Positions 11,941-43,807 of a DNA stretch of 64,000 nucleotides are shown here, piece by piece. The stretch lies in the NCBI GenBank assembly GCA_964566035.1, contig CAZMHH010000002.1, positions 64,013-128,012 on the forward strand. Reading direction: 5' to 3'. A program made the position numbers and the translations under genes. This stretch comes from an uncultured Thermodesulfobacteriota bacterium. Lineage in GTDB: Bacteria; Desulfobacterota; WTBG01; CAIYCZ01; CAIRTM01. The stretch's first letter is position 1; each line of letters begins with the position of its first letter. The notes beneath the pieces were generated by a model that was not told where the DNA came from, did no database searches, and saw only the letters and a program-made list of their open reading frames with translations.

Positions 11941-11942
11941 AA

Positions 11943-15647: not shown

Positions 15648-15668
15648 AGATTCGGAGAATTAATTTAA

Positions 15669-16328: not shown

Positions 16329-16498
16329 CAATAAAAAAAACTCTGCTTCAGCAGTATTATGCTGAAAAAGAGCAGGATAAAGACAAAAACAATTTCAGGC
16401 TCTTTCTGTTGAGCCAGGTTGTTCAGTTGGCAGGGCTCCTTATTCTTCTTCTGGGAGGGATCTTCCTTATATTTTTTGGGTTAAAACTTGTTTTTTGA
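16325..16498 (+). CDS. Small hydrophobic protein (57 aa) translationally coupled to atpD; function unknown
   Basis: Its ATG overlaps the atpD TGA (ATGA). Sequence MTIKKTLLQQYYAEKEQDKDKNNFRLFLLSQVVQLAGLLILLLGGIFLIFFGLKLVF has a single C-terminal transmembrane helix. It is below the ORF-track size cutoff and was found by reading the sequence. Confidence 0.4.
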   Translation: MTIKKTLLQQYYAEKEQDKDKNNFRLFLLSQVVQLAGLLILLLGGIFLIFFGLKLVF

Positions 16499-16581
16499 CA
16501 CAAGCAGCTAAGGTGTATTATTTCAGATACTATAATTGGGCAAGTACAAAAACTTTATTAAAAAAAGGAGGGGGGGGTAAC

Positions 16582-17028
16582 ATGTCACTTCCAATATCCC
16601 ATATAATGAAGACACATATTGTAATATGTGAAGAGAAATCAACATTGAGAAAAGTTGCAGAAACCATGCTCAAAGAAAATACAGGTTCTGTTCTGGTACA
16701 GCATGGAGAAGAGACAGTTGGAATGATAACAGTAAATGATATCTTAAGAGCAGTACTTGCCGGAAAGGATTTTGATATTGTATCAGCAGAAGAAATTATG
16801 TCCCGTCCCCTTGATACAATAGACATAGACAGGGATATTGAACAGGCTATGAAAAAATTTGAAGAAACAGGCAGAACAAGGCTTGTTGTTATGGAAGGCT
16901 CCAGGGTTGCTGGCATTGTAAAGAGAAAAATCGCCGAACGGTTTAAGGGGGTTTCATCACTTCTGCATTTTTCCGATAAAACGCGCTCACTTCATTTCAG
17001 AAGAGGTTCAGGCAGTACTCTCAGCTAA
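16582..17028 (+). CDS. CBS-domain pair protein
   Basis: Start chosen at the ATG at 16582, directly after a strong RBS (AAAAAAGGAGGGGGGGG), rather than the track start at 16495. Tandem CBS motifs (GSVLV..GEETVGMITVNDIL; GRTRLVVMEGSRVAGIV). Confidence 0.7.
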   Translation: MSLPISHIMKTHIVICEEKSTLRKVAETMLKENTGSVLVQHGEETVGMITVNDILRAVLAGKDFDIVSAEEIMSRPLDTIDIDRDIEQAMKKFEETGRTRLVVMEGSRVAGIVKRKIAERFKGVSSLLHFSDKTRSLHFRRGSGSTLS

Positions 17029-19832: not shown

Positions 19833-22142
19833 TTGGGCAGAGATAATAAAACTGAAAAACACCTCAAAGAAAACAGTTTCCGGTTGTCCCTGTTTGAGGC
19901 CATTCTGGAGAATGCAGGAGAAGAATGTTATCTTGTCAAACCCGGAGGTCAGCTCGTTTATGTGAACAGAGCTGCTGCGCAGAGCCTTGGATACACGGTT
20001 GAGGAGATGCTTTCTATTGGAGTTCCTGGTTTTGACCTGAAATTCGGGCCTGTTTTTGAGAGCCTTTTTATGGAGTTAAAAGTTAAAAATGTTCCTCCTT
20101 TTGAAACTATCCACACAGCAAAAGACGGACGTAAAATTCCAAAAGAGATAAAAGCCGTTTACATGAGTTTTGGGGATGAGGAGTATGTATGCGGTTTTGG
20201 TCGCGATACAACAGAGCGCAAAGCCGCTGAGGAAGAACTGCACAGAAGGGAACGGCAGTTTTCGCTTATTGCCAATAATTTTCCGGGAATTGTATCCCGT
20301 CTTGACAGAAATCTGGTGTTTACATTTTCCATAAGAGGTTATGAGCCTGTATCAGAAATTGTTCCAAAAAATGTAATAGGCCAGTCATTAAGGGATGTAA
20401 TCGGCAGGAAAACATGGAACATTGCACAGCCGTATATCAAGCAGGCTCTGACCGGGGAACAGGTCTCTTTTGAAAACACCCATACTCTGCCTTCGGGAAA
20501 GACCTTTTCTGTTTTAAACACACTTGTTCCGGATCTTGATTCTGAAGACAATGTAGAAGGGATTTTTACTTTTGCAATAGATATAACGAAAAGAAAAGAG
20601 GCTGAACAGGCACTTCTTGAAAGCGAGGAGAGGTACAGGCGGTTGTATGAGGGCAGCAGGGACGGGATTGTAAGGGTTGATATGCACGGCAATATATTGG
20701 AATTTAATCAAAGCTACCAGGCAATGCTTGGATATACAAAGGAGGAAATAGAGGGAAAAAACTACAGACAGTTTACCCTGTCAAGGTGGTTGGAAGCAGA
20801 AGAACAGATTCTTTCAGAACAGACCAAGAAAAAGGGCTACTCTGAAGTTTATGAAAAAGAGTATGTAAGAAAGGACGGATCGATATTTCCCGTAGAACTG
20901 AGGACATTTCTTATAAATAAAAAAGGTAAAAATATCGGAATGTGGGCAATTGTACGTGATATTGAAGAACGTAAAAAGGTTGAGCAGAATTTAATGCAGG
21001 CTCATAAGATGCAGGCAATAGGCACACTTGCCGGAGGGATTGCTCATGATTTTAATAATATCCTGGCGGGGATTCTTGGATATGCCCAGATTATAAAGAA
21101 AAAACTGCCAGAGAACAGCCCACTGAACAGTTATATTCAACAGATATTCAGAATGGGTGACAGAGCGGTAAATCTTATCGATCAGATTCTTGCTTTCAGT
21201 CGAAAAACAGATATTCAACCCAAGCCATTGTTGCTTAGTCTTATTATAAAGGAAAGTCTTAAAATGCTTCATTCAACTATTCCTGCACATATAAGCATTG
21301 ATCAGAAAATATTTGACACAGAAAGCACTGTGCTTGCCGACCCTGCACAGATCCACCAGGTGCTTATGAATCTTTTCTCGAATGCAGCATACGAGTTGCA
21401 GGAGACAGGCGGTGTTATAGAGGTGGTACTTAAAAAGCTGAACCTGAAAGAAGAAAACATAAAAAAATATCCCGGACTGAAACCCGGGCATTTTTTATCC
21501 CTTACTGTAAGGGATACAGGGTCAGGGATTGACGGCTCAATTAAAGACCGTATTTTTGACCCCTTTTTTACAACTAAACCTGTTGGAAGCGGAACAGGCA
21601 TGGGGCTTGCCGTGGTACACGGGATTGTGGAAAGCCTTAATGGTGTAATAAGGGTTGAATCAGCAATTGAAAAGGGAACAACTTTTCAGATTATTTTGCC
21701 AGTATCAAAATTAATAGAAAATGTCCATACTGATGCTGAGGATACAAAGAAAATTGCGGGTGGAAGTGAGAGTATTATGATAATAGATGATGAAGAATCT
21801 CTTACCTTTACTTTTGGAAAAATTCTGGCAGAAATGGGTTACCGGATAAAAACAGAGAATAAAAGCATGGAAGCACTAAATGATTTTGAACAGAATCCAG
21901 CTTGCTATGATTTGATAATAACAGATATGTCAATGCCTCAGATGACGGGGTTTGAACTTGCCAAAAGGATAATGGATATACGTCCTGAAATGCCATTGAT
22001 AATATGTACGGGGCACAGTGATGTTCTTACAGAAGAAAAGATCCAAAAAGCAGGTATCAAAGCATTGTTAAAAAAGCCTGTAACTGCTGAAAAACTTCTG
22101 AAAACCGTCCGTTATGTTCTTGATGAAAACAAGATAAAATAA
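19833..22142 (+). CDS. PAS/PAC sensor hybrid histidine kinase with C-terminal receiver domain
   Basis: 769 aa. Several PAS-like segments. H-box HDFNNILAGILGYAQ, G-boxes DTGSGID and GSGTGMGLAVV, and a C-terminal REC domain (IIDDEE...DLIITDMSMP...K). TTG start. Confidence 0.85.
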   Translation: MGRDNKTEKHLKENSFRLSLFEAILENAGEECYLVKPGGQLVYVNRAAAQSLGYTVEEMLSIGVPGFDLKFGPVFESLFMELKVKNVPPFETIHTAKDGRKIPKEIKAVYMSFGDEEYVCGFGRDTTERKAAEEELHRRERQFSLIANNFPGIVSRLDRNLVFTFSIRGYEPVSEIVPKNVIGQSLRDVIGRKTWNIAQPYIKQALTGEQVSFENTHTLPSGKTFSVLNTLVPDLDSEDNVEGIFTFAIDITKRKEAEQALLESEERYRRLYEGSRDGIVRVDMHGNILEFNQSYQAMLGYTKEEIEGKNYRQFTLSRWLEAEEQILSEQTKKKGYSEVYEKEYVRKDGSIFPVELRTFLINKKGKNIGMWAIVRDIEERKKVEQNLMQAHKMQAIGTLAGGIAHDFNNILAGILGYAQIIKKKLPENSPLNSYIQQIFRMGDRAVNLIDQILAFSRKTDIQPKPLLLSLIIKESLKMLHSTIPAHISIDQKIFDTESTVLADPAQIHQVLMNLFSNAAYELQETGGVIEVVLKKLNLKEENIKKYPGLKPGHFLSLTVRDTGSGIDGSIKDRIFDPFFTTKPVGSGTGMGLAVVHGIVESLNGVIRVESAIEKGTTFQIILPVSKLIENVHTDAEDTKKIAGGSESIMIIDDEESLTFTFGKILAEMGYRIKTENKSMEALNDFEQNPACYDLIITDMSMPQMTGFELAKRIMDIRPEMPLIICTGHSDVLTEEKIQKAGIKALLKKPVTAEKLLKTVRYVLDENKIK

Positions 22143-22252: not shown

Positions 22253-23944
22253 ATGAAAAAGAAAAAAATATTAATTGTATTGGTTCTTTCTGTTCTTTTG
22301 CTGTTCCTTATTTTTTTTGCAGTCGCTGCTTATTTATTTTCTCCAAAAGGCAATGAGTTTCTAAAAAATTATGCAGAGAAAGAACTGAACCAAAAAACAG
22401 ATATCCCTGTTGAAATCAAAACTCTTGAAATAAATTCGGGAAAAATTGTTCTGGAGATTTATTTTAAAGACAGCTCAAAAATAGTGTTTAATGGAAAATA
22501 TTCTCTTACCGGCTTATGGGCAAAAGGCGTCTATGATGCCGACATAAAAGACCTTTCAGTTCTGAAGGAATTTACCGGCAGAAAACTGCATGGTTCTCTG
22601 AAGATAAAAGGCAACCTGAAATGGGAAAAGGGTGAACTGAAATTTGAGGGCTTATCTGATATATTTGGGGGCAAATCATCTTTTTCAGGAAGCCTTAATG
22701 CACCTGTGATAAAGGATTTTTCCCTTGATATCCAGAAACTTAATGTAAAAAAGATGTTTGAGACCCTTGGTTTTCCCTTTTACACAACAGGAGATATAAA
22801 CGCGAGAGCGGATATTGCAAGCTTTAATCTCCATAGTAAAAAAATAGAAGGCAGGCTTGATATCTCCTCAAAAAATATAAGAACAGTTGATTCAGAGCTA
22901 AAAAGAACACTACAGCTTGACTATGTTGAACCAGTAAAGGCGGAGATTTATATTATCTCAAACTTTCAAGATACATTTGCAGTAATAACTGCCAATGTTA
23001 CAAGTAATATTGCCTCATTAAAAACCTCCCAAACAGCATTCGATCTTAGTACAAAAACGCTTGAGTCTGAGTATGAAATTTATCTGCCCGACCTTAAAAA
23101 ACTTAAATTTATTGCAGAACGCAATATGATAGGTGATTTGAGAGTCAAAGGCGATATAAAAAAAGAAGGTGAAATGATTTATTTCTCTGCATCAACCGGG
23201 TCTCTTGGGGGAAGCATTGCAATTGACTATAATAAAAATAAATTGACTGCAGAAATGAGAGATGTTTCAGCAGCAAAGGTAAGCTCTATGTTTGCTATGG
23301 ATGACATGTTTGGAAAAGGAGAGTTCAGTCTTGATGCAGATGCAGTTTTGTATGGAGAAAACAGGGAGGAAGTATTGAAAAACCTGTATGGAAAATTCCA
23401 TCTAAAGGGAAGAAACATTGTTTTAAATTTAATAGATATTGACGGTGTAATTGAGGGTTTGAGCCGAACAAAACAGATAAACCTTTTTGATATTGGCGCA
23501 ATAGCACTGGCAGGCCCGCTTGGTTTTGCCCTTACAAAAGCAGAGGATGTAAGCCGCACTGCTTACAGTTCATATGCAAGGGGCAGTAGCGTGATAAAAG
23601 AAATTAATGCCCAGTGGATTATAAACAGAGGAATAGCAGAAACAGAGGATGTTGCGTTTTCAACAAAAAAAAACCGCCTTGCTTCCAGGGGAAGGATAGA
23701 CCTTAAAAGCCAGAGGTTTTTGAACTTCAATATTGCTCTGATAGATGAACAGGGATGCTCAACATTTATGCAGCGGGTAGAGGGGAGGCTTACTAATCCC
23801 AAAGTATCGGCTTCAAAAACATTTGCTGAAACAGCAAGGAATATTTTTGATTCAATAGTATCAAAAGTGCCTGTACGGGAAGATAAGCAACAAAACAAAT
23901 GCGAATTCCTCTATAAAGGTGTTGTACAGCATCCTGTCAACTAA
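22253..23944 (+). CDS. AsmA-like / DUF748-type membrane-anchored periplasmic protein
   Basis: 563 aa. One N-terminal transmembrane helix (ILIVLVLSVLLLFLIFFAVAAYLF), followed by a long beta-rich Lys/Ser/Gly repetitive region, the architecture expected of AsmA-family proteins. Family assignment is tentative. Confidence 0.45.
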   Translation: MKKKKILIVLVLSVLLLFLIFFAVAAYLFSPKGNEFLKNYAEKELNQKTDIPVEIKTLEINSGKIVLEIYFKDSSKIVFNGKYSLTGLWAKGVYDADIKDLSVLKEFTGRKLHGSLKIKGNLKWEKGELKFEGLSDIFGGKSSFSGSLNAPVIKDFSLDIQKLNVKKMFETLGFPFYTTGDINARADIASFNLHSKKIEGRLDISSKNIRTVDSELKRTLQLDYVEPVKAEIYIISNFQDTFAVITANVTSNIASLKTSQTAFDLSTKTLESEYEIYLPDLKKLKFIAERNMIGDLRVKGDIKKEGEMIYFSASTGSLGGSIAIDYNKNKLTAEMRDVSAAKVSSMFAMDDMFGKGEFSLDADAVLYGENREEVLKNLYGKFHLKGRNIVLNLIDIDGVIEGLSRTKQINLFDIGAIALAGPLGFALTKAEDVSRTAYSSYARGSSVIKEINAQWIINRGIAETEDVAFSTKKNRLASRGRIDLKSQRFLNFNIALIDEQGCSTFMQRVEGRLTNPKVSASKTFAETARNIFDSIVSKVPVREDKQQNKCEFLYKGVVQHPVN

Positions 23945-25509
23945 CATTTTCCACTCTCCAGCGCCTCTCTAATCTTTCTTGAAATATCGTTTATACCGAA
24001 TGGTTTTTGTATAAAGGAACAAAAGCCGTTTTTAACAATATCCTCAACTTCCAGCTCATCTCCCAGCCCTGTTGCAAGAATAAACCTAGTATTTGAATTC
24101 TCCTGCCTGAGAACGTTAAACAGTTCTCCTCCGTTCATTTCAGGCATTAAATAATCAAGAACTACCACATCTATGTGTTCTCTGTTTTTTTTAAAAACAT
24201 CTACCGCATGATGAGGGCTGTTAGCCGTGATGGTTTTATACCCGAGTGTCTGGAGCATCTCTGCAGCAACATTAAGCATTGAAGGTTCATCATCAACAAG
24301 CATAACGGTTTCAGAGCCTTTAAAAACTTTTTCCCGGGGTGGTTCTATCTTCTGTGGTTTTTTATCAGAGGCAGGAAGGTAGATTGTAAATTCACTGCCG
24401 ATCTGCTTTTGACTTGTTGCGGTTATAATTCCGCCATGATTTTTAATTATTTCGTAACAGGAAGAAAGCCCAAGCCCCGACCCCAACTCATTTCCTTTTG
24501 TTGTAAAAAATGGTTCAAAAACTCTTTGCAGTATTTCTTCATCCATTCCTGTTCCTGTATCTTTAACTTTTATCATAACATATCTGCCCGGTGATATTAA
24601 GGTGGTCTGGGGATTTTGAGGCTTTATTTTAATGTTGCCTGTTTCAACAATTATTTTACCGCCATGTGGCATGGCATGACATGCATTGACATAAAGATTC
24701 ATCATTACCTGTTCAACCTGTCCTTCATCTGCTTCTATGCAGTGCATGTTTTTATCAAAAACATGTTCTATTGATATGTTTTTTCCTGTTTTTTGATAAA
24801 TGTCTGATATGCTTTTTATTAAATCTCTTATATCCAGAACAACTGTATCGCGTTTTCTGCCCTTTGCAAGGTTTAAAAGCTGTTTTGTTATTTTGGTGCC
24901 ACTTCTGACCTGTTTCTCAATACTCAGCAGTTTTTCATGTTCAGGGGATCCGGGAACTGAGGTTGCAATCAGCAGGGATGTATAACCCAGGACATTCATA
25001 AGTATATTGTTAAAGTCATGAGCCATACCTCCTGCAAGTGTTGCAACAGCTTTCATTGTTGCGGTATGCTGAACAAGGCGCTGAAACTTTTCTTCTGAAA
25101 GCTGAAGATTTTTTTTCATTGCAATGCTCTCAGCGCTCAGTCGTTTCTGCTCGAGAGCGTTTTCAACACGTTTTAGCAGCTCTTCAAACTCGAAAGGTTT
25201 TTTCAGATAATCATAAGCACCTTTTTTAAGAGCTTCAACAGCAGATTCTATTGTTGCATTTCCTGTTATTACAATGGTTTTAAAATCAACATTTTTCTCT
25301 TCAAAATGTTTTATTATATCAATTCCGTTCACATCCGGCAGGACCATATCAAGAATTACAATGTCAGGTTTGTGAGAACTTAAAATATCTATTGCCTCCC
25401 TGCCACACCCTGCAGTGGTAACTTCAAATCCCTGTCCTTTAAGGAGGATAGCCAGGCTCTGGCATATATGTTTTTCATCATCAACAACCAGTATTCTTTC
25501 CTTCTTCAT
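23941..25509 (-). CDS. Hybrid histidine kinase with N- and C-terminal receiver domains (REC-HisKA-HATPase-REC)
   Basis: 522 aa. N-terminal REC (ILVVDDEK...DIVILDMVLPDVNG...K). H-box HDFNNILMNVLGY. G-boxes DTGTGMD and GSGLGL. C-terminal REC (VMLVDDEP...DVVVLDYLMPEMNG). Confidence 0.85.
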   Translation of the reverse strand: MKKERILVVDDEKHICQSLAILLKGQGFEVTTAGCGREAIDILSSHKPDIVILDMVLPDVNGIDIIKHFEEKNVDFKTIVITGNATIESAVEALKKGAYDYLKKPFEFEELLKRVENALEQKRLSAESIAMKKNLQLSEEKFQRLVQHTATMKAVATLAGGMAHDFNNILMNVLGYTSLLIATSVPGSPEHEKLLSIEKQVRSGTKITKQLLNLAKGRKRDTVVLDIRDLIKSISDIYQKTGKNISIEHVFDKNMHCIEADEGQVEQVMMNLYVNACHAMPHGGKIIVETGNIKIKPQNPQTTLISPGRYVMIKVKDTGTGMDEEILQRVFEPFFTTKGNELGSGLGLSSCYEIIKNHGGIITATSQKQIGSEFTIYLPASDKKPQKIEPPREKVFKGSETVMLVDDEPSMLNVAAEMLQTLGYKTITANSPHHAVDVFKKNREHIDVVVLDYLMPEMNGGELFNVLRQENSNTRFILATGLGDELEVEDIVKNGFCSFIQKPFGINDISRKIREALESGKC

Positions 25510-25518
25510 AATTATTTA

Positions 25519-28518
25519 TTAATCTCCATTTACAGGCAGTCTAATTTTAAATTCTGTGCCCCTGTCCTTCTGTGGTAAACACTGAATTGTTCCTTTCATG
25601 GAATGTACAATACCATATACAACAGATAGCCCAAGTCCTGTATGCCCCTGCCCTTTTGTGGTAATATAAGGTTCAAAAATCCTCTGTCTTACCTCTTCGG
25701 GAAGCCCTGGCCCGTTATCGCTGATTATTATTTGAACAAAAGGCGGTTCAGAGGGAAGCAGATCAGTTTTTACAGTAATATCACCGCCTTCGGTAAGAGC
25801 TTCACCCGCATTTTTAATTAGATTGGTAAAGACCTGTTTAAGCCCTTCTTTGTTTGCTTTTAAATTTATTTCAGGCTGTTTAAATTGCGTATGAACCCTT
25901 ATTGCTTTTGTTGACAGGTATCCTTTAGTTATATTTAGTACCTCGGATATAACTTTATTTATATCAAGCAGTTCTTTAACAGCATGGTCAGGCAGAGAAA
26001 AATTAGACAAACCATCAACTATCCGTGAAGCTGAGTTTATCTCTTCCTGGATTATTTTAATTTCATTAAGATCAACATTCTGTTCAGCAAGGCGCATCTG
26101 TAGTATTTTTAAATAATTTTTGATTATACTAAGAGGGTTGTTTACTTCATGAGCAATTTTTCTGGCCACAGCCTTTGCTGCATCCATCCGCTCAGTTATT
26201 CTAACTACTTCCTGCTGATTTCTAAGTTTATCAGCATAGAGGGCAACACAGGTATGGTTCATAAAATTTTTAAGTAAGGCACTGTCATGTTTTAGAAATT
26301 CAATATAGTGTCTATCGCCCCCTACAGCAAAGACACCTAAACAGTCCCCCCTGCATGATAGCGGAAAACATATTATGCCCTCTTTTCCTGTGAGTTGTAT
26401 TATCTGTTCATCAATTATGGAGAGCCTGCTTTTTTGGAGGAACTCAAAAGAATCTGTAATAGTGTTATGTTTAAAACAATGGGACAATATGGTGCGGTCG
26501 TGTCTCAAAGGCACTGTAATTGGACCTATTGTTGAATTGAGACGGAGATCAGATGATGTGGAGCACACAAGAACGTCCATATTTTTTTTATACAGAAAAA
26601 CAAGTAGCTGTTCAGCTCCAAACAGTATCTTGAAACCACTTTCAGCAGCATTTATAATTTCCGCGGTATTTACCGCCTTTGAAATGTTTTCTACGGTTCC
26701 AAAAAGCACTGAAATCTCTTTTACATAACCTGAAAGCTCTTCCTGCTTCTGTTTGTCAGAAACATCTTCTTCTTCTGTTATTTCAATTCCAAGAGAAAGG
26801 GCTGTCTGGTTAGCCTTTTCTTTCATCTCATCTAATATCTTTTCCACCTCCTCGGATGAAAATCCGAGAAGTTCCCAGGCTTTTCTATAGCCTGTATTCC
26901 TCAGTTTTTCATTGTCAGAACAAAGGGCGTTTGATGTGTTGATTATTTTTACAAAATCAAATGCATTAAGCGCCCTTTCTAAGGGCTCATGATGATAAAG
27001 AACTGCATGACTGATAAAAGATTGAAGATTCCATTTCTGAATAAGTTCTGCGCCTGCCATGCAGTGATTTATACCGAGCTTGTTTTTTTCAAGATTTAAC
27101 AGCTCTTCCGGATCTGCTGCTTTTTTAAGTATAGCGGGGTATTTTTCGGGAAAGTTTGCAAGCAGAATTAGTTTTCCCATATCATGGAGAAGCCCTGATA
27201 GAAAGGCATCTTCAGGGGATGAAACAGAGCCTTTTTTTGCCATTAAACTTGAGCATATCCCTACATAAAGAGAGTGTCTCCAGAAATGTTTTAAGTTGAT
27301 AGAGCTGGAATATTGAGAGGTACTGAAAACCTGACAGACAGAAGCACTTACAGCCAGGTTTCTGATTGTTGAGCATCCGAGCAGGGATACAGCCTGTTCA
27401 ATATCTGTCGGTTTGGTGTTAAGATGGTAAAAGGCAGAATTAACCATCTTAAGGGTTTTTGAGCAGAGCACAGGATCTTTTTCAATAATACCGGCAATCT
27501 CTTTTAAACTTGTCTCCTCCCCTGAACATGCCTGAATCAGTCTCAGAAGAATATGCGGAAGAGACGGAAAGTTTAATGTATATAAGAGTCCCCTTTTTTC
27601 TTCCTTCAATTGTTGACCGGATATTTTAGATGGCAGGATGCCCTGTTTTTTTGAAGTAATTTTATCATCAGTTTGGTTCTTATTAACCTGCAAATGCTTT
27701 TCATTAAATTCAAAATTAGAGCCTGTAAAACTGAAAAATCTGGACCAGAAAGATGCTGAAGATGAAAGGTTAAGATTTTCGGTTCTGTTTTCAAGCAGCC
27801 GAACTGCAGCAGACTTAAACCCCTTTGAAGCTTTAGAACCTGGATAGAGGGTTATTAAAGGGACCTGTTTTTTTACTGCTTCCTGAAGAGCCTCATCATA
27901 GAGAATAACCCCAAGCGGTTCAATATCCACTGCAAGATATTTGTTTACAACCTCTTTTAATTTCTTATACACCTGTGTTGCTTTATCCATGTTGCTGCAC
28001 TGATTGATTACAAGCTTTATTGTACCGGTGAATTTTTGAGCGTTTAAAACCTTCAGCAGTGAATAGGAATCTGTTAAAGATGTAGGTTCCGGAGTTACCA
28101 CACAGACAATTTCTTTTGAAGCCATACAAAAACTTATTACATTTCTTGAAATCCCGGCTGCTGTATCAAATATTAAAAAGTCATAGCAATCAAGAGGATT
28201 AAAGGTTTTTATCAATTCATCAATTGACTCTTTTTCAAGATTTGCAAGTTTTTCAACCCCGGAACTTCCTGGAATAATATCGATACCGTGATAATTTTTA
28301 ATAATCACATCCTCAAGCCTTTTTTCCTTTGACACAACATCTTCAATACCAAACTCAGGATAAATACCAAGCAGTACATTTATATTTGAAAGCCCCAGGT
28401 CTGCATCAAAGAGACAGACCCTCGAGTCCTTTTCTGCAAGACAGAGCGCAAGGTTTAAAGCAGTGTTTGTTTTGCCCACACCTCCCTTACCACCTGTAAC
28501 TGCAATTGTTCTTATCAT
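25519..28518 (-). CDS. Multidomain sensor: MinD/ParA-family P-loop ATPase fused to an HDOD domain, a GAF-like domain and a histidine kinase
   Basis: 999 aa. N-terminal deviant Walker A GGKGGVGKT with a MinD/FlhG-like domain of about 250 aa. HDOD block (...LLHDMGKLILLANFPEKY...LYHHEP). C-terminal H-box HEVNNPLSII and G-boxes DNGPGLP and GLGLSVV. Confidence 0.8.
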   Translation of the reverse strand: MIRTIAVTGGKGGVGKTNTALNLALCLAEKDSRVCLFDADLGLSNINVLLGIYPEFGIEDVVSKEKRLEDVIIKNYHGIDIIPGSSGVEKLANLEKESIDELIKTFNPLDCYDFLIFDTAAGISRNVISFCMASKEIVCVVTPEPTSLTDSYSLLKVLNAQKFTGTIKLVINQCSNMDKATQVYKKLKEVVNKYLAVDIEPLGVILYDEALQEAVKKQVPLITLYPGSKASKGFKSAAVRLLENRTENLNLSSSASFWSRFFSFTGSNFEFNEKHLQVNKNQTDDKITSKKQGILPSKISGQQLKEEKRGLLYTLNFPSLPHILLRLIQACSGEETSLKEIAGIIEKDPVLCSKTLKMVNSAFYHLNTKPTDIEQAVSLLGCSTIRNLAVSASVCQVFSTSQYSSSINLKHFWRHSLYVGICSSLMAKKGSVSSPEDAFLSGLLHDMGKLILLANFPEKYPAILKKAADPEELLNLEKNKLGINHCMAGAELIQKWNLQSFISHAVLYHHEPLERALNAFDFVKIINTSNALCSDNEKLRNTGYRKAWELLGFSSEEVEKILDEMKEKANQTALSLGIEITEEEDVSDKQKQEELSGYVKEISVLFGTVENISKAVNTAEIINAAESGFKILFGAEQLLVFLYKKNMDVLVCSTSSDLRLNSTIGPITVPLRHDRTILSHCFKHNTITDSFEFLQKSRLSIIDEQIIQLTGKEGIICFPLSCRGDCLGVFAVGGDRHYIEFLKHDSALLKNFMNHTCVALYADKLRNQQEVVRITERMDAAKAVARKIAHEVNNPLSIIKNYLKILQMRLAEQNVDLNEIKIIQEEINSASRIVDGLSNFSLPDHAVKELLDINKVISEVLNITKGYLSTKAIRVHTQFKQPEINLKANKEGLKQVFTNLIKNAGEALTEGGDITVKTDLLPSEPPFVQIIISDNGPGLPEEVRQRIFEPYITTKGQGHTGLGLSVVYGIVHSMKGTIQCLPQKDRGTEFKIRLPVNGD

Positions 28519-28605: not shown

Positions 28606-28641
28606 GGAAAAAAGCCCCGGACTTTTTGGTCAGGGGCTTTT
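28606..28641 (-). terminator. Rho-independent terminator downstream of the lipoprotein gene 28673..30499
   Basis: On the minus strand: AGCCCC, a 14-nt loop, GGGGCT, then a T6 run. GC stem 28614-28618 pairs with 28633-28637. An A-run on the plus side makes it formally bidirectional. Confidence 0.6.
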
Positions 28642-28672: not shown

Positions 28673-30499
28673 TTATTCTTTTGCAAGCCGGTAAATCTTT
28701 GCTCCCAGATAACCCTCTTCCCTTTCATCCTCAGGCCAGTAGTTTGAGGGAAGAAGATTTGAAGCAGCAACATAGAGCTTGTCTTCAAATTCTGTAAAAG
28801 CCTCTATCTGGAGGATTGTTTTATCTCCAAAACCGTTTTGAAACACAGGGCTCCATGTATAAACTCCATCTTTTCCTGTCATCTTCCATAGATGCGCTCC
28901 TTCTATCTCATCAACTTTTTTCCCGAATTCAACATTGTTCTGATACGTGCCGGCATACATGGAATTTCCGAATGTATATAGATTCATACAAATAATTGAG
29001 GCATATCCCTTATTCATTCCAAACCCCCCCGGTACATCAGAATCGCCACCAACATTATACTGCCATGTAGGTGTTATTCCGTCATCCTGAAAGTCATTCT
29101 CTGAGCCTGTTTCTGTAAACATGATTCTTCCCCCGTCAAGAATTCTGGCAATAGATGTGAAAAGTTTCCCGTCGTATTCTGCCCAGTCCCAGGCTTGAAA
29201 ATTTGATTCAAAAAAATTTGTAGACCCATCTCCAAACCCGTTTTCATTAGTTCCCGTAGTATTTTCATCCACAAAATAATCTATAATAGGTGACCAGTCA
29301 CCGCTGTCGAGTTTGAACACCCTTGCCCCGATCCCGTTGCATCCTGTTGAACCTGTTCCGCCCACAAAGAGGGTCTCTTCTCCTGTTATAGTGCTTTTGC
29401 CGAATTTGTTTGAGCTTGAACAGACAGGACTCCCGTTTCTGTACTCCTGACTAGAAATTAAACATCCGTGCAAATTCAGGTTCCAGTCATATCCATGAAA
29501 AAGCCCGAAACTTCTCTTGGAGGATTTTTCCCAGTTAATTCCATCAGAGGTTTTCATGATGTGGGTTCCGCTTTCATAATTCAGTCCAATTGATGCATAA
29601 AGCTCATTGTCCAAGATTTCAAAATCAACAATGGTTTTATTCCAGAAATCTCCAAAACCGTTGATTCTGTCTCCGGTCATAATAAAATATTCCAAACCTG
29701 CTAAAAGCGCAGGAACTGTATATCCGGGACGGCCGGGTTCCCCCGGAACAAAAAATTCATCGCACCGGGTATATTCATTAAAATAGTCGGGGGTTCTATC
29801 AAGTTTTGCAGCAGCACATTCAGACTGTTGTACTGTAAGGGTATTTTCTGTATTACTGATTATTCTGAACACCCGTCCCTTGCTGTCAGATTTTTCATCT
29901 GTTATCCATAGGGTTCCTCCTGCCCATTCATTTTCATCCCAATCCTTGGCATAATCCGTGAAATCGGCTGTCTCATGGTCATCATCAAGGGAACAGCCAA
30001 AAATTTCATCTATTATGCCTTCTTCACTTTTATCAGCAAGCAAGTGTGAAATAACCGGTTCCCAGTCTTCTCCATCAAATCTCCATATTTCACAACCAAC
30101 TGATTTATATCTATTAGCTCCCTGAAACCCTGAAGATACGGCAACATAAAGATGTTCTTTAAATTCTATCATATCACCCCATATATTGTGCATAAATTCA
30201 TGGAAAATACCGTTGGTAAAGCCTGGTGCACTTACTTTCTCCCAACTCTCTCCTTTTGTATGCCACAACTCAAAACCTGATACATCATTGCGTGTAATGG
30301 CATAAAGACTTCCCTGAAAAGGAGTCATTGCCACAACAGAAACATTGTATTTATCTCCAAATCCGGCTACACTTACCCTTTCCCATACAGATCCGTCTTC
30401 ACCTTCAAGCTGTTCAAGGCTCTTTGGAACATTGTTTTCAGGAAAGCACCCCGTAAAAACAAATAATAAAAACAATATTGATAAAAATATCTTTTTCAT
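28673..30499 (-). CDS. Lipoprotein with ELWxxDG-like beta-propeller repeats; function unknown
   Basis: 608 aa. Lipobox FLLFVFTGC. Recurring blades (GFELWHTKGESW, EIWRFDGEDW, RVFKLDSGDW, HLWKMTGKDGVYTW) and many GFGD motifs. Confidence 0.6.
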   Translation of the reverse strand: MKKIFLSILFLLFVFTGCFPENNVPKSLEQLEGEDGSVWERVSVAGFGDKYNVSVVAMTPFQGSLYAITRNDVSGFELWHTKGESWEKVSAPGFTNGIFHEFMHNIWGDMIEFKEHLYVAVSSGFQGANRYKSVGCEIWRFDGEDWEPVISHLLADKSEEGIIDEIFGCSLDDDHETADFTDYAKDWDENEWAGGTLWITDEKSDSKGRVFRIISNTENTLTVQQSECAAAKLDRTPDYFNEYTRCDEFFVPGEPGRPGYTVPALLAGLEYFIMTGDRINGFGDFWNKTIVDFEILDNELYASIGLNYESGTHIMKTSDGINWEKSSKRSFGLFHGYDWNLNLHGCLISSQEYRNGSPVCSSSNKFGKSTITGEETLFVGGTGSTGCNGIGARVFKLDSGDWSPIIDYFVDENTTGTNENGFGDGSTNFFESNFQAWDWAEYDGKLFTSIARILDGGRIMFTETGSENDFQDDGITPTWQYNVGGDSDVPGGFGMNKGYASIICMNLYTFGNSMYAGTYQNNVEFGKKVDEIEGAHLWKMTGKDGVYTWSPVFQNGFGDKTILQIEAFTEFEDKLYVAASNLLPSNYWPEDEREEGYLGAKIYRLAKE

Positions 30500-30723: not shown

Positions 30724-31548
30724 TTATACCTTTTCAGTAGGTTGTTTTTTGCTAAAAAAGGCTGATTTAATGAAGACAAATGCCAAAACAGCGGCAAATA
30801 TCCAGCATAAAACAATTATTATGGAGAGAAGAGGGTTTTTGAGAAAGCCTGCTTTGTGAACTGTGCCAAAAACAGCAGCTGTCTTTTCTTCTGCATGACA
30901 ACTCATGCAGAGAGCTGTTTTTTCCTGCATTTTGCCGTGATTGACAGAATCAAAATGACAATCCATACAGTTGGCAGTTGTATTTGTACAGCCCAGGTTT
31001 TCCTTTCCGTGCCCTTTGATGCGGGTGGAAATAAAGGATAGATAAGGGGGGTCTGCCTCTTCAGGATGGCATGCGCCGCAGGTTTGGGCAATGTTATCGG
31101 GATGAACTGAAGAGGCCGGCTCATCAACAAGCATTACCTCATGGGTGGTGTGGCAGTCATAGCATTTTGGCGTGTCCGCTGCAAAACGGGGGTCAAGCAT
31201 GCTGTGGGTGCTTTTGTCAAAAGCCGCCTGAATATCCTCATGACATTCTGCACAGTTCACCTCGGGATATCCATCAGCAGGGTGCTCTTCAGGTGTTGCC
31301 TCTGTATGACAGTCAATACAGTTATAACCCATACTTCCGTGGATTGAGCTTAAGAAGGCGTCTTTATCAACAAACTGACTGACTTCTTTGCCTGTTTTTT
31401 CATCAACCCTTGTCAGGTTTCTGTCCTGATGACATTCAAGACATGCATCTATCTCGTAAGCGTAAGTACTTTCTGCACTCACCGAAAAGAAAATGGCTAT
31501 CAGCATAATAAAAATAAGAAGCACTATATTTTTTGATTTGACTGTCAT
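30724..31548 (-). CDS. Membrane-anchored heptaheme cytochrome c (periplasmic, C-terminal TM anchor)
   Basis: 274 aa. Signal peptide. Seven CxxCH motifs (CLECH, CIDCH, CAECH, CYDCH, CGACH, CMDCH, CMSCH). C-terminal hydrophobic helix LLSIIIVLCWIFAAVLAFVFI. Confidence 0.85.
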   Translation of the reverse strand: MTVKSKNIVLLIFIMLIAIFFSVSAESTYAYEIDACLECHQDRNLTRVDEKTGKEVSQFVDKDAFLSSIHGSMGYNCIDCHTEATPEEHPADGYPEVNCAECHEDIQAAFDKSTHSMLDPRFAADTPKCYDCHTTHEVMLVDEPASSVHPDNIAQTCGACHPEEADPPYLSFISTRIKGHGKENLGCTNTTANCMDCHFDSVNHGKMQEKTALCMSCHAEEKTAAVFGTVHKAGFLKNPLLSIIIVLCWIFAAVLAFVFIKSAFFSKKQPTEKV

Positions 31549-31559
31549 ATCTTTTTAAT

Positions 31560-33488
31560 TTACTCCATTGCCTTTAAAACAATTTCTGCGATATCAAGAC
31601 AAGAGACATCATCTGCTTTTTCCCTGACCTTTATCCCATCCTCAAACATGGTCAGACAGAAAGGACAGGCTGTTGCAACAGTATCAGGTAATTTTTCCAG
31701 AGCCTGATCTGTTCGCATCTCATTAATCCGTTGACCCATGTGCTCCTCCATCCACATCCTGCCCCCACCTGCTCCGCAGCAGAAACTCCTGTTTCTGTTT
31801 CTGTCCATCTCAACAAGGCTTAAGCCGTCGATGCCTTTCAAAAGCTCTCTTGGCTGGTCATAGATATTGTTGTATCTGCCAAGAAAACATGAGTCATGAT
31901 AAGCGATTTTTTTCTGCTCGGTCTTTTTTAATCTTATCTTCCCTGTCTTTACTAAATCAAGAATATATTCACTGTGATGATAAACCTCAAAATTTCCCCC
32001 ATGCTGAGGATACTCGTTTTTGAGCATATTATATCCATGAGGACATATTGCAACTATTTTTTTAATATTGTAATTGTTCATTACCGCTATGTTTTGCTGA
32101 ACAAGGGTATCGTAGAGGTATTCATTTCCAATCCTTCTCGCCGAATCCCCGCAGCAGCCCTCTTCTGAGCCAAGTATTACAAACTTAATTCCAGCCTTTT
32201 GCAAAATCTTTACTAAAGCTATAGATACCTTTTTATATCTGTCATCAAAAGCCCCTGCACAACCGACATAAAAGAGTATATCAAAATCTTCACTTTCTGC
32301 AGCTGTCTTTACCCCAAGGTCTTTTGCCCATTCTCCTCTTGAATGCGAACCCACTCCCCAAGGGTTGCTGTTATTTTCCATGTTTCTAAACACTGCCTGA
32401 ACCTCTTGAGGAAAGTTTGCCTCCATAAGTACAAGATACCTGCGCATTTCAATTGTCTTGTCAACGGTTGTTTCAAAAACAGGGCAGTGTTCATGACAGT
32501 TGAGACACATGGTGCATGACCATATTGTCTCATTTTCAATAATATCGCCTATCAATGCTCTGTTTGCAGCATCTTCTGATTTTGAAAACCCTTTATCCTC
32601 CATGTGTTTTTTTAAATCCTGAAGCAGTTTTTTTGGAGAGAGAGGTTTCTGGCTTAAATGTGCAGGGCAGTTATCCTGACATCTTCCGCACCGGGTACAG
32701 GCGTCAAGCTGAAAGAGCTGTTTTCTGGTAAACTCTTCAATGGTTGAAACCCCGAATGTTTCAGCGGTCTCAAAATCACTTATTGGCTCAATTACCCCCG
32801 GAGCGTCATATTTTCTTAGGAAAATCTGAACTGAAGAAGTAACGATATGAAAAAATTTGGTATAGGGAATAAATGCAATCAGAGCAAGAACAAGGATCAG
32901 GTGAATGCGCCATATAAGTGCATGTAACAGGGTTTGTGCCTCGTTTCCAAACGGAATAAAGAGGTATGAAAAAAGAAATCCTACAGGAGCATATTCCGCC
33001 CCCTGCCCGGTAATTGCAAGGCGAAGCCCCTCAATGCAGAAACCAAAGAATATGATGGCAAAAAGCCAGATGAGCGCTACAGCGTCTTCTGTTTTTGTAT
33101 CGCTTAATCGGTCGGGTTTTTGAATATATCTGCGGTAGGCAGCAAAGGCAATTGCCATAATCCCCAAGGCGCCGATTATGTCAAGAAACAAAGAGAATCC
33201 ATTTGCAATGTTTTGAGGGAGTTGAAAACGCAGGTTGACAGCAAATATTACAAGCAAAGGAATAATGCATGCTAAAAAAATAAGAAGATGCATTATTCCC
33301 GGATATTTCTCTTTTAATATCCTGCCATGACCTATGGCATACACAAAAAAATCTTTTATGCGCAATGCTGTGTTGCCTTGCGCATCGGAGCTTTTGCCCA
33401 TGTTCCAGAGTCTGAATCTTCTTGCGATTCCTGCTGAACATATTATCAGGGCAAGTATAACCAAAAGGGGGTCGATTAAAGAGAGCAT
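31560..33488 (-). CDS. Membrane-bound FeS oxidoreductase: N-terminal multi-TM cytochrome-b-like domain fused to an HdrD-like 2x[4Fe-4S] + 2xCCG domain (ETF:menaquinone-oxidoreductase 'EMO'/DUF224 type)
   Basis: 642 aa. About 5-6 transmembrane helices with conserved His residues. Ferredoxin motifs CTRCGRCQDNCP and CTMCLNCHEHCP. Two cysteine-rich CCG domains (..CCGDSARRIGNE.., ..FCCGAGGGRMWMEEH..). Sits immediately downstream of etfBA. Confidence 0.8.
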   Translation of the reverse strand: MLSLIDPLLVILALIICSAGIARRFRLWNMGKSSDAQGNTALRIKDFFVYAIGHGRILKEKYPGIMHLLIFLACIIPLLVIFAVNLRFQLPQNIANGFSLFLDIIGALGIMAIAFAAYRRYIQKPDRLSDTKTEDAVALIWLFAIIFFGFCIEGLRLAITGQGAEYAPVGFLFSYLFIPFGNEAQTLLHALIWRIHLILVLALIAFIPYTKFFHIVTSSVQIFLRKYDAPGVIEPISDFETAETFGVSTIEEFTRKQLFQLDACTRCGRCQDNCPAHLSQKPLSPKKLLQDLKKHMEDKGFSKSEDAANRALIGDIIENETIWSCTMCLNCHEHCPVFETTVDKTIEMRRYLVLMEANFPQEVQAVFRNMENNSNPWGVGSHSRGEWAKDLGVKTAAESEDFDILFYVGCAGAFDDRYKKVSIALVKILQKAGIKFVILGSEEGCCGDSARRIGNEYLYDTLVQQNIAVMNNYNIKKIVAICPHGYNMLKNEYPQHGGNFEVYHHSEYILDLVKTGKIRLKKTEQKKIAYHDSCFLGRYNNIYDQPRELLKGIDGLSLVEMDRNRNRSFCCGAGGGRMWMEEHMGQRINEMRTDQALEKLPDTVATACPFCLTMFEDGIKVREKADDVSCLDIAEIVLKAME

Positions 33489-33585
33489 AATCTGATTTCT
33501 TTGAAGAGGTTAATTATCAAATATAATTGAAACAACTCCAGGTACGGTCGAAAATATGTATCTGGAGTTGTTTTTTGTTTTCAAA

Positions 33586-34578
33586 TCAGTCTGCAAGCAT
33601 CTTTTTGAGTTCTTCTGTCAAAGGCGGAACAATTTTAAACAGATCATCAACCACGCCGTAATCGCATTTTGAGAATATCGGAGCCTCTTCGTCTTTATTG
33701 ATTGAAACTATGATTTTTGATGTACCCATTCCTGCATAGTGCTGAATAGCGCCTGAAATACCGCATGCAATGTAGAGGTTGGGGGAAACAACCTTTCCTG
33801 TCTGTCCAACCTGGTCTGATACAGGTCTCCATCCGGCATCAACTGCTGCTCGGGAAGCGCCGACTGTAGCTCCAATAACTTCAGCAAGCTCTTCAAGCAT
33901 CTTGTAGTTTTCAGCGCCCTTCATTCCTCTTCCTCCTGAAACAATTATTTCAGCCTCAGTAAGGTCAACCTTCCCTGCCGCGGTTTTTAAAACTTCAACA
34001 ACCTTTACCCTGATATCACTTTCGGAGATCTCTGGAGCAACATTAACAACCTCTGCGCTTTTGGATGTGTCAGGCTCTGCCGCGATTAATACATTCGGTC
34101 TTATTGACGCAATGCTTATATCAGTGTTTTGAAAGCTGACTTCGCAATATGCTTTTCCTGCATACATTGGTCTTTTTACAGATATATTGTCGTCATCGCC
34201 AAGCTTTAAATCAACGCAGTCTGATGCAAGACCTGCTCCTACACGGGCCGCTACTTTCGGAGACAGATCCCTTCCCAGCACGGTTGCGCCAAACAACACA
34301 GTAGAAGGCTGTTCCTTTGTTATAAGGTCACATAATGCCTTTGCATAGGCATCTGTTGTATACTGTTTGAGAAGATCATGTTCAACAATATATACTTTTT
34401 CAGCTCCATAGGGAGCAAACTTTTCTGCCAGAGCTCCTATGTCTTTTCCAAGGCATACAGCGCAAAGGGGCTCACCTTTTTTATCTGCTATCTTTCTGGC
34501 TTCACTTAAAATTTCAAAAGCAACTTTTCTAAGCTTGCCTTCTTCCTGCTCTGCAAATACCCAAATTCCTTTTCCCAT
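33586..34578 (-). CDS. etfA: Electron transfer flavoprotein alpha subunit
   Basis: 330 aa. The FAD-binding C-terminal domain ([39 protein letters not shown]) is characteristic of EtfA. Confidence 0.9.
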
Positions 34579-34612
34579 TTTTGTATCTCCTATATTTTTT
34601 TGTGGTCAACAG

Positions 34613-35425
34613 TTAAATTATTTTTGCTTCTTCTCTTAATGCCTTTGCAAGGTTTGCCGCTTTTTCTTCAGGACTTTCTCCCTGAATAATTTTTGCGGCT
34701 GTTCTTGCCGGAGGTGAAGAGAAATTGCCTGCTTTTGTTTTTGAGCCTGCAGCTCCAACGGTTGCAGTGTCAATTCCAAGGTCGGCTGCTTTTACAGGAT
34801 TAAGGGGTTTTTTCTTTGCTTTCATTATGCCGGGAAGGGAAGCATATCTTGGCTCATTGAGGCCTTTCTGAGTTGTTATAACACAAGGTACGGGCATTTC
34901 AAGAACCTCTTCTCCGCCGACAATCTGTCTGTGTACTTTAACACTCTTTTTGTCTTCGCCAACCTCTACTTTTATTACAAGTGAGGCATGTGGAATATTA
35001 AGATGTTCAGCAAGAGCTACTCCGACCTGTCCCTGGTCGTCATCGATAGCCTGCTTGCCGCAGAATATAAGGTCATACTCCATTTTTTTAATCTGCTCAG
35101 CAAGTATCTTTGCTGTAGTCATAGCGTCGCTTCCGTCAAAAGCAGGATCGTCAAGGTGATATGCATTATCAGCGCCCATTGCAAGACCTGTTCTTATCGC
35201 CTCAACACTGCGTGCCGGCCCAAGACATACAAGAGATACAGCACCTGCACCTGCTTTTTCTTTCTGCTGTAAAGCTTCCTCAATTCCAAACTCATCATAA
35301 GGGCTGATAATAAATTTAACCCCGTCGAGCACAACATCTGATCCGTCAGATTTTACACGGATCTGGGCTTCTGTGTCAGGAACCTGTTTTAAACATACAA
35401 TACTGTTCACATCATCCTCCATCAA
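34613..35425 (-). CDS. etfB: Electron transfer flavoprotein beta subunit
   Basis: 270 aa. N-terminal IVCLKQVPDTE and the ...DLIFCGKQAIDDD... motif are typical of EtfB. Confidence 0.9.
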   Translation of the reverse strand: MMEDDVNSIVCLKQVPDTEAQIRVKSDGSDVVLDGVKFIISPYDEFGIEEALQQKEKAGAGAVSLVCLGPARSVEAIRTGLAMGADNAYHLDDPAFDGSDAMTTAKILAEQIKKMEYDLIFCGKQAIDDDQGQVGVALAEHLNIPHASLVIKVEVGEDKKSVKVHRQIVGGEEVLEMPVPCVITTQKGLNEPRYASLPGIMKAKKKPLNPVKAADLGIDTATVGAAGSKTKAGNFSSPPARTAAKIIQGESPEEKAANLAKALREEAKII

Positions 35426-43801: not shown

Positions 43802-43807
43802 GCAAAA

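Follow-up and report, generated by a model that had tools for sequence, protein, structure and literature searches.

Here we describe a gene that joins an FlhG-like ATPase to a sensor histidine kinase, located in a 64,000-nucleotide stretch of contig CAZMHH010000002.1 (GenBank assembly GCA_964566035.1, positions 64,013 to 128,012 of the forward strand) from an uncultured Thermodesulfobacteriota bacterium, probably one of the sulfate-reducer type. This whole stretch is referred to below as the window, and positions are counted within it unless a locus of a relative is named. The fusion gene lies on the minus strand (Table 1) in a reading frame free of internal stops, and its translation is one continuous protein in which the FlhG-like ATPase is followed, in order, by a short helix bearing an FW..F motif, a linker, an HDOD domain, a GAF domain, and the HisKA and HATPase_c domains of a kinase transmitter. 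Pfam models place the N-terminal region among the MinD/ParA-type ATPases (AAA_31, residues 3-160, 64.9 bits, E 1e-17, cut-off 27; ParA, 3-239, 59.5 bits, cut-off 27.1; CbiA, 5-220, 58.4 bits, cut-off 25.4), and identify HDOD (PF08668, 318-512, 185.8 bits, E 8e-55, cut-off 22.9), HisKA (785-841, 33.8 bits, cut-off 26.9) and HATPase_c (890-996, 78.5 bits, cut-off 26.4) in the remainder. With these models above their gathering thresholds in a single uninterrupted frame, domain annotation bears out the original prediction, a reading of the nucleotide letters which had proposed a fusion of a MinD/ParA-type ATPase to an HDOD-GAF-HisKA/HATPase sensor; both of the motifs that it quoted are also in place (GGKGGVGKT at residues 9-17 and FDTAAG at 117-122).

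The product of this gene is a soluble, cytoplasmic multi-domain sensor histidine kinase. No transmembrane helix was detected in it (the highest 19-residue Kyte-Doolittle mean, 1.49, falls within strands of the GAF domain), and the partner kinase encoded downstream is likewise devoid of a transmembrane segment. The Pfam scan gave no receiver (Response_reg) match within the fusion protein, which is not a hybrid histidine kinase; receivers are encoded by the next gene. A full-length AlphaFold (AF2) model reached a predicted template modelling score (pTM) of 0.33, and because of this value contacts between the ATPase, HDOD and kinase portions were not read from it.

Table 1. Positions in the window of the fusion gene, its parts, its partner gene and the upstream hairpin; residue numbers refer to the fusion protein.
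Feature	Residues	Position	Strand	Key residues, remarks and basis
Fusion gene	1-999	25519..28518	-	999 amino acids, ATG start, stop codon included; open reading frame list, translation, Pfam
FlhG/FleN-like deviant-Walker-A ATPase	1-245	27784..28518	-	Pfam AAA_31/ParA/CbiA; solved-structure matches
Deviant Walker A, G10-K11-G-G-V-G-K16-T17	10-17	28468..28491	-	Signature lysine K11, P-loop lysine K16; invariant in 18 homologues
Switch I, D38-A39-D40	38-40	28399..28407	-	Invariant in 18 homologues
Conserved amphipathic helix (SASFWSRFFSF), candidate internalised FlhG membrane-targeting sequence	254-264	27727..27759	-	
Disordered low-complexity linker	265-317	27568..27726	-	Predicted local distance difference test (pLDDT), alignment
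HDOD domain (Pfam core 318-512)	318-575	26794..27567	-	H415, H445-D446, H485, H509-H510
Divergent GAF domain	~615-745	26284..26676	-	Family profile against PDB, Pfam in relatives, AF2 and Foldseek
Dimerisation and histidine phosphotransfer (DHp)/HisKA hairpin	746-845	25984..26283	-	Phospho-acceptor H790 at 26149..26151
HATPase_c	849-996	25531..25974	-	N box N899/N903, G1 D934-x-G936-x-G938, G2 G961-x-G963
Co-transcribed partner, 522-amino-acid REC-HisKA-HATPase-REC hybrid kinase		23941..25509	-	D54, H164, D452 (partner numbering); Pfam, junction sequence
Terminator-like hairpin between upstream lipoprotein gene and fusion gene		28610..28641	-	Sequence, RNA fold

A search of 5.8 billion proteins, clustered at 90% identity, identified 27 clusters with the same full architecture, 999-1097 amino acids long and 36-45% identical to the window protein, originating from Desulfobacterota/Deltaproteobacteria metagenome bins of several sources. 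In an alignment of 18 of these full-length homologues, on which all statements of invariance made here rest, the junction between the ATPase and the HDOD domain varies in length and composition and is never interrupted. Mis-assembly, or a sequencing error that erased the stop codon separating two genes (one for an ATPase, one for an HDOD kinase), could be suspected from the existence of split arrangements in other genomes and from the low complexity of the junction; however, the continuous frame is shared by the 27 independent clusters from different samples and assemblers, the linker stays open despite its differences in length and sequence, and base composition is even along the gene. Moreover, the split genomes have other gene orders (kinase, MshEN protein, ATPase; or ATPase-HDOD-GAF plus HDOD-kinase), so that the plain loss of a stop codon would not yield the window protein. 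We consider an artefact of this kind extremely improbable, and the comparison of homologues indicates that the fusion is a real, conserved gene rather than a mis-assembly.

The original prediction had also called the fusion unusual, and the architecture search shows it to be rare rather than unique, with many related forms either split or otherwise fused. Within a library of 1.84 billion representatives of clusters at 50% identity, the kinase form of approximately 1000 amino acids accounts for only 2-3 clusters, an ATPase-HDOD form of 720-870 amino acids that carries no kinase for about 50 representatives, and many others are 'extended' ATPases of 340-530 amino acids. Where the full-architecture clusters have been given a database name, it is only 'HDOD domain-containing protein', and some relatives are labelled 'flagellar biosynthesis protein FlhG' by the Joint Genome Institute (JGI).

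The residues of the ATPase module that are invariant among the homologues include K11, K16, T17, D38, D40 and the Walker B aspartate D118; in MinD and FlhG, residues of this kind serve to bind and hydrolyse ATP and to build the nucleotide sandwich dimer. This invariance of catalytic and dimerisation residues argues for a working ATP switch and not a relic. Strands and helices alternate in the AF2 model of the module, in a Rossmann-like manner, and the best solved matches to residues 2-240 are Pseudomonas aeruginosa FleN (5j1j, E 1.5e-55) and Geobacillus FlhG (4rz2, E 3e-44), ahead of archaeal MinD (E about 1e-24), Escherichia coli MinD (3q9l, E 2e-15, only the twelfth-best solved match) and Soj/ParA (E about 1e-9). 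Neither of the NCBIfam MinD models reached its cut-off (minD_bact, TIGR01968, 123.1 bits against 212.9; minD_arch, TIGR01969, 127.2 bits against 201.75). Since FleN and FlhG match best and the MinD models score far below their cut-offs, we class the module as FlhG/FleN-like and not as MinD proper.

A neighbour-joining tree built on 239 aligned columns from 109 ATPase domains, with E. coli MinD as the outgroup, further separates this module from FlhG itself. All HDOD-fused proteins, the split ATPases of Desulfobacterota loci L002, L003 and L006, and the ATPases of L004 and L005 form one clade (bootstrap 79/100), whose sister is a gammaproteobacterial pair of ATPases (L008 and L037), both encoded beside HDOD genes, and 72 stand-alone FlhG sequences fall outside it. 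The clade is also distinguished by its N-terminus: its members start 2-3 residues before strand 1, whereas stand-alone FlhG carry an N-terminal extension of 27-40 amino acids, which presumably bears the FlhF-activating motif. In the window protein strand 1 begins at residue 3, and the solved-structure matches begin only at residue 15 of FleN and residue 31 of FlhG. Similarly, the first glycine of the G-K-G-G Walker A stands at position 12 or earlier in 106 of the 114 clade members longer than 700 amino acids (at 10 in the fused clade), as opposed to a median position of 38 among stand-alone FlhG representatives of up to 310 amino acids. Judged from this tree and from gene context, the ATPase is a member of a separate FlhG-like clade whose representatives are systematically found beside, or fused to, HDOD and further signalling domains. 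The 'complete MinD/FlhG-like ATPase' of the original prediction needs amending: every catalytic and dimerisation motif is kept, but the module is not a complete MinD and is a member of a distinct FlhG-like clade that has no N-terminal extension.

These findings bear on whether the protein might be a bona fide FlhG that acquired a kinase and couples flagellar assembly to a phosphorelay. The identity of its closest solved structures, the FlhG names given by JGI to some relatives, and the repeated association in the literature of HDOD proteins with flagellar motility (GsmR, Cj0248, SadB and PSPTO_4229) would be in keeping with such a role. However, no flagellar, flhF or fliA genes were found in the 64-kb window or in the loci of four relatives on long contigs (L081-L084), and together with the separate clade and the missing N-terminal extension this leads us not to file the protein as FlhG; we regard a flagellar assembly function as very unlikely.

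Immediately after the ATPase fold lies the FW..F helix, with F257 and W258 invariant and F261 almost invariant. At the position aligned to its SFWSRFF, the stand-alone FlhG of several phyla, Desulfobacterota and Nitrospirota among them, terminate in ..(I/V)(Q/K)FFWKR(I/F/L).., a tail which we take to be their C-terminal amphipathic membrane-targeting helix. The FW pair is found at this position in 112 of the 114 clade members longer than 700 amino acids, and the motif is likewise present in the split ATPases and in every other clade fusion that was read, including those with PilZ, cyclic-nucleotide (cNMP)-binding/DUF4388, CheX and HATPase_c domains (L089, L005, P0221, P0181, P0151 and P0194), which keep FW..(L/F) after the ATPase fold. 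In the AF2 model the segment forms an isolated helix of low pLDDT followed by disorder up to residue 318, with values under 50 across residues 248-323.

The linker that follows measures 57 amino acids from F261 to P318 in the window protein, the shortest in a family whose other members have 66-118. A disordered connection of this length (57-118 amino acids) is better suited to tethering or localisation than to allosteric coupling. In the AF2 model, the HDOD, GAF and DHp portions are connected by long continuous helices (555-575, 590-614 and 746-812), which is the usual arrangement for signal transmission between domains. The contrast between the flexible linker and these continuous helices favours a division of labour in which the ATPase and its helix would act as a tether or localiser, and HDOD-GAF as the sensing path to the kinase. 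The same contrast bears on the notion that the ATPase is a sensor of ATP/ADP (energy charge) whose dimerisation switches the kinase allosterically, with no part in localisation. The intact and invariant nucleotide-binding and dimerisation residues would suit such a sensor; histidine kinases are obligate dimers, so that two ATPase modules would always be near each other; and genes of energy metabolism (V-type ATPase, electron-transfer flavoprotein (ETF), Hdr-like protein and multihaem cytochrome) are found in the neighbourhood. Yet these neighbours are not conserved in the relatives, a variable disordered linker is a poor conduit for allostery, and the conserved FlhG-type amphipathic motif would be left unexplained, all of which make energy sensing an unlikely primary role.

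The HDOD domain, all-helical in the AF2 model over residues 320-575, matched eight solved HDOD structures, with a Geobacter protein (3hc1, E 4e-24) being the closest. Its H415, H445-D446, H485 and H509-H510 align with the WAHS, LLHD, SHC and YHH motifs of 3hc1, and all six of these putative metal ligands (five histidines and one aspartate) are invariant. In 3HC1, a set of this composition coordinates two iron ions (PMC12075610); at the level of sequence, the window HDOD domain keeps the di-metal ligand set complete. In an anaerobe, such a di-metal site could plausibly serve as an input that reports on redox state, on O2/NO or on metal status. SadB has been reported to lack three of those histidines and not to bind c-di-GMP in P. 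aeruginosa (2025 structural paper, PMC12075610), which suggests that the adaptor mechanism of SadB need not apply here. No GYP motif occurs anywhere in the fusion protein and Pfam assigns the region to HDOD and not to HD-GYP, so that it is not an HD-GYP phosphodiesterase of cyclic di-GMP (c-di-GMP).

The GAF-like region anticipated by the original prediction was confirmed through its relatives, the window protein alone scoring 15 bits against Pfam GAF (PF01590), below the cut-off of 22.4. A profile built from residues 585-775 of the family alignment (15 members) matches solved GAF domains (3o5y, E 5e-7; 3oov, E 4e-5; the PDE10A GAF, E 2e-3), and among these 15 members Pfam itself detects GAF_2 in 12, GAF_3 in 11 and GAF in 11, with E-values down to 1e-6. 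In addition, an AlphaFold model of residues 585-775 (pLDDT 87, pTM 0.82) retrieved essentially only GAF-fold proteins among its top 50 Foldseek matches, the best being 5w10 (template modelling score 0.70, E 2e-8). The profile and the predicted fold together indicate a divergent but genuine GAF domain. The transmitter that follows is canonical in its motifs: H790-E791-V-N-N-P-L is invariant and lies in a hairpin of two long helices (746-812 and 818-841 in the AF2 model), and the N, G1 and G2 boxes of HATPase_c are invariant as well. None of the NCBIfam equivalogs was reached (AtoS, for example, 160.7 against a cut-off of 646), and since all such scores fall far below their cut-offs no named kinase counts as an orthologue of this protein.

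The fusion gene and the hybrid kinase gene downstream of it form a conserved two-gene signalling module. The partner ATG lies 9 nucleotides past the stop of the fusion gene, and a gene encoding a receiver (REC)-(PAS)-histidine kinase-REC protein directly follows the fusion gene in five of five loci, namely the window and L081-L084. The window partner is 44-49% identical, and orthologous, to the hybrid kinases at this position in L081-L084, which are 642-654 amino acids long and all contain a PAS domain of about 125 amino acids (for example, L081 11199..13142) that it does not have. The window lineage looks like it possesses a trimmed version of the module, with a partner devoid of PAS and the shortest ATPase-HDOD linker. 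The original prediction had placed the fusion in a cluster with two hybrid kinases; both are indeed hybrid kinases, but only the immediate neighbour is a conserved partner. The gene for the second (19833..22142), a PAS-HisKA-HATPase-REC protein, lies on the opposite strand beyond an unrelated gene, and the loci of the relatives do not contain it.

Upstream, the hairpin listed in Table 1 suggests that the fusion gene starts its own transcription unit. It folds with -17.9 kcal/mol (z = -3.4 relative to shuffled sequences) and has a run of six U, the first four of which are paired in the stem; it was found by reading and folding, its apical region exceeding the 8-nucleotide loop limit of the terminator scan that missed it. 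A scan for sigma-70 promoters returned 33 sites where 21 were expected, which is uninformative. In L081-L084 a divergent pair of ABC permease genes precedes the fusion.

Relatives of the fusion protein reveal the same parts in a variety of arrangements. Three loci (L085, L086 and L087) encode an ATPase-HDOD-GAF protein that has no kinase (797-833 amino acids), an HDOD-histidine kinase (719-754 amino acids) and a REC-PAS-histidine kinase-REC protein, followed in two of the three by a PilZ gene. In L006 and L002 the order is HDOD-GAF-histidine kinase, a 324-amino-acid MshEN-domain protein, and an ATPase of 352-363 amino acids, while L003 (7312..12069) and L088 (283..5284) encode an MshEN-T2SSE (PilB/GspE-like) ATPase, an FlhG-like ATPase and an HDOD protein of 293-294 amino acids. 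The recurrence of this last cluster hints at a pilus or secretion link, together with c-di-GMP, for the ATPase clade. In Marinobacter sp. C2H3 (L008, NZ_JBBBNZ010000002.1, 8484..14170) a 445-amino-acid ATPase gene is divergent from one encoding an HDOD-GAF-histidine kinase (673 amino acids), followed by a REC-PAS-GGDEF-EAL gene (724 amino acids); this cultured gammaproteobacterium offers a possible experimental model of a split version. In L037 two HDOD genes and a GGDEF-EAL gene lie around the ATPase gene. Furthermore, ATPases of the clade are fused to PilZ (L089, 616..2202), to cNMP-binding and DUF4388 domains (L005, 9980..11977; P0201; P0220), to CheX (P0221) and to HATPase_c (P0181, P0151 and P0194), the last three not being counted as histidine kinases because they have no recognisable H-box. 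Neighbouring PilZ, MshEN or GGDEF-EAL genes make a c-di-GMP link for the module likely in the lineages that possess them.

Such arrangements raise the prospect that the functional core is formed by the ATPase and the HDOD domain, with HDOD acting as a client or regulator of the ATPase (as MinE does for MinD, or FliM/FliY for FlhG), the kinase being one of several interchangeable outputs, and the pathway concerning a second messenger (c-di-GMP) or pili. The kinase-less form with its roughly 50 representatives, the adjacent separate genes of L003, L088 and L037, and the MshEN-T2SSE, MshEN, PilZ and GGDEF-EAL partners found as neighbours or fusions are in agreement with this proposal. So is the specificity of the HDOD link: using an HDOD profile, we detected an HDOD open reading frame within 10 kb in six of nine unfused members of the clade as against two of the 72 loci of stand-alone FlhG, which together span 1.16 Mb. 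However, no PilZ or MshEN gene adjoins the operon in the window or in its four closest relatives, L084 alone having a GGDEF gene approximately 4.7 kb downstream; the fusions to PilZ, cNMP-binding with DUF4388, CheX and HATPase_c that contain no HDOD indicate that HDOD is not obligatory; and a long disordered linker does not suggest a fixed intramolecular complex. We regard an ATPase-HDOD core as possible, though short of probable, and it is not mutually exclusive with a tethering role. A broader proposal, that a previously unrecognised FlhG-like clade is dedicated to signalling, with HDOD as its characteristic partner serving as client or regulator of a MinD-type ATP switch, and that the ATPase-HDOD pair is a new positional or second-messenger device attachable to kinases, PilZ, cNMP-binding domains, CheX and pilus ATPases, is offered tentatively and seems to us rather doubtful as a whole.

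Two further ideas concerning these families were rejected. The counts above do not support a general linkage of HDOD to genuine FlhG loci; one of the two stand-alone exceptions (L012, 14158..15965) consists of two tandem HDOD open reading frames about 3.4 kb downstream of FlhG in an Aminicenantes bin. Nor did the full fusion (class A) appear to have arisen by unequal recombination between tandem paralogues of the ATPase-HDOD-GAF (class B) and HDOD-GAF-histidine kinase (class C) types: sliding-window identities revealed no breakpoint, A-B and A-C identities being about equal across HDOD-GAF, and classes B and C, found together in the same genomes, resemble one another more (0.50-0.69) than they resemble A. 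These identities are better explained by gene conversion, or by duplication and partial loss within the B and C lineage, than by recombination. As a separate observation, L081 encodes, about 4 kb from its kinase operon, a 448-amino-acid CheD-HDOD fusion (15347..16693, minus strand), an unusual HDOD architecture with a link to chemotaxis.

Together, these results are compatible with a mechanism in which an ATP-dependent switch of the FlhG type tethers a soluble kinase to the membrane, or clamps it, and the kinase in turn phosphorylates the hybrid kinase encoded downstream, a scheme that we regard on balance as probable, if only modestly so. ATP binding would bring the ATPase modules together as a sandwich dimer through the signature lysine K11, as in FlhG and MinD, and thereby expose the amphipathic FW..F helix, which could bind the membrane or a membrane-associated partner until hydrolysis released it. 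The module would mainly tether or concentrate the kinase dimer at a site, conformational signalling from it being unlikely because of the flexible linker that joins it to the rest of the protein. Sensing of the signal itself would fall to the GAF domain and to the di-metal pocket of HDOD, and these two domains, via the continuous helices leading to DHp, would control the rate of autophosphorylation at H790. The phosphoryl group could then pass from H790 to D54 in the N-terminal receiver of the hybrid kinase, where phosphorylation may gate the second kinase step and the C-terminal receiver. The ATP-dependent localisation wired into a phosphorelay that the original prediction envisaged accordingly finds its motifs, its FW..F helix, its linker and its partner kinase conserved, although the localisation itself is something that we infer.

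Several points weigh against this mechanism. Dimerisation, membrane binding, metal binding and phosphotransfer are all steps that we infer from homology. The hydrophobic moment of helix 254-264 (about 0.45) is only moderate, and the helix is internal, with 735 residues after it, rather than C-terminal, and predicted at low AF2 confidence. Conservation of an adjacent PLKL suggests that the segment could be a docking peptide instead. Class-B relatives carry no kinase, from which it follows that ATPase-HDOD may be the functional core and the kinase a dispensable addition. In the five divergent class-B relatives that were read (P0087, P0096, P0106, P0110 and P0113) the HH pair is altered to H-T, H-N or H-I, so the di-metal site would not be universal in the wider clade. 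Finally, the window contains no output domain, Hpt protein or c-di-GMP gene.

Other genes of the window give a view of the surroundings of this module. Just upstream, 28673..30499 (minus strand) encodes a predicted lipoprotein of 608 amino acids (N-terminus MKKIFLSILFLLFVFTGC) with no Pfam or NCBIfam match, in which recurring W-x-x-V-x-x-x-GFG-like motifs suggest a repeat or propeller protein. Beyond it, genes at 30724..35425 (minus strand) encode a multihaem cytochrome c (274 amino acids), an HdrD/DsrK-like membrane CCG iron-sulfur protein (642 amino acids) with a nitrate-reductase-gamma-like N-terminus, and ETF alpha and beta, a set reminiscent of the membrane-linked modules for electron transfer that are typical of anaerobic Desulfobacterota. 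These are followed at 35833..39368 (minus strand) by a complete two-component system, comprising a dCache-PAS-HisKA-HATPase kinase and then a REC-sigma54-activator-HTH_8 regulator, with no evident link to the fusion kinase. On the plus strand, 7279..15647 holds a V/A-type ATPase operon (subunits I, C/AC39, A and B), in a genome that seems Desulfobacterota-like, and 42305..45382 a bpMoxR-type AAA ATPase of the kind found in MoxR-vWA-beta-propeller ternary systems, then a 524-amino-acid protein with no Pfam match.

The wider interest of these findings lies in a whole clade of FlhG-like ATPases that has been recruited into signalling proteins, for which HDOD, fused or adjacent, is the preferred partner in Desulfobacterota and certain Gammaproteobacteria, a cultured Marinobacter among them. 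HDOD is widespread, ranking among the commonest bacterial signalling domains, and has been tied repeatedly to motility and biofilm phenotypes, yet it has no established biochemical function. Two questions become testable, namely what role HDOD plays and whether an ATP switch can position the histidine kinase to which it is fused, with the split Marinobacter version (an ATPase beside an HDOD-GAF-histidine kinase, and REC-PAS-GGDEF-EAL downstream) providing a tractable system. Should HDOD prove to be a client or regulator of the ATP switch, this would be the first mechanistic handle on a domain tied to motility and biofilm phenotypes; if the module is only a dimerisation accessory, it would still extend, modestly, the known range of input domains of kinases.

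None of the domains of the fusion protein is out of the ordinary, and public databases already contain the architecture under no name of its own. MinD/FlhG-type ATPases are normally regarded as stand-alone spatial regulators, and we found no paper on one joined to HDOD or to a histidine kinase in a literature in which subscription journals were poorly covered. FlhG/FleN is a MinD-type ATPase controlling flagellar number, and the known proteins (4RZ2/4RZ3 and 5J1J) give the best sequence match to the ATPase module and share with it the deviant Walker A with its signature lysine, the DxD switch I and the Walker B aspartate, while its FW..F motif aligns with the C-terminal tail of stand-alone FlhG from related bacteria; unlike FlhG, the window protein has no N-terminal extension, carries its helix internally, and stands in a separate clade, with no flagellar genes in the window or in L081-L084. 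In MinD, the mechanistic paradigm, a terminal amphipathic helix couples ATP-dependent dimerisation to membrane binding. MinD belongs to the same superfamily and fold, and on direct reading the numbering of K11, K16, D38 and D40 is identical to that of E. coli MinD, but the match is much weaker (that to 3q9l cited above) and neither minC nor minE is found nearby.

Compared with known HDOD proteins (3HC1, SadB, GsmR, Cj0248 and PSPTO_4229), the window HDOD domain is a strong match in which the five-histidine, one-aspartate set of 3HC1 is fully conserved; those proteins are small or fused to REC or YbaK-like domains, whereas here HDOD lies between an ATPase and a GAF-kinase. The transmitter most resembles those of cytoplasmic GAF/PAS-HisKA kinases of the AtoS, ZraS and NtrB type, with which it has in common the H-box HEVNNPL, the N, G1 and G2 boxes and the long helix between GAF and DHp, but the ATPase-plus-HDOD input region is not found in them. 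Precedents for localising signalling or secretion machinery are provided by TadZ/CpaE and ParC/PpfA, MinD/ParA ATPases that position pili or chemoreceptor arrays and that, to our knowledge, are not fused to HDOD, GAF or histidine-kinase domains. TadZ, in addition, exemplifies both a fusion with a receiver-like domain and a genetic linkage with a T2SSE-family ATPase, a linkage resembled by the MshEN-T2SSE, ATPase and HDOD clusters of L003 and L088. Alongside these systems, the window protein is a histidine kinase with an unusual, conserved ATP-switch module.

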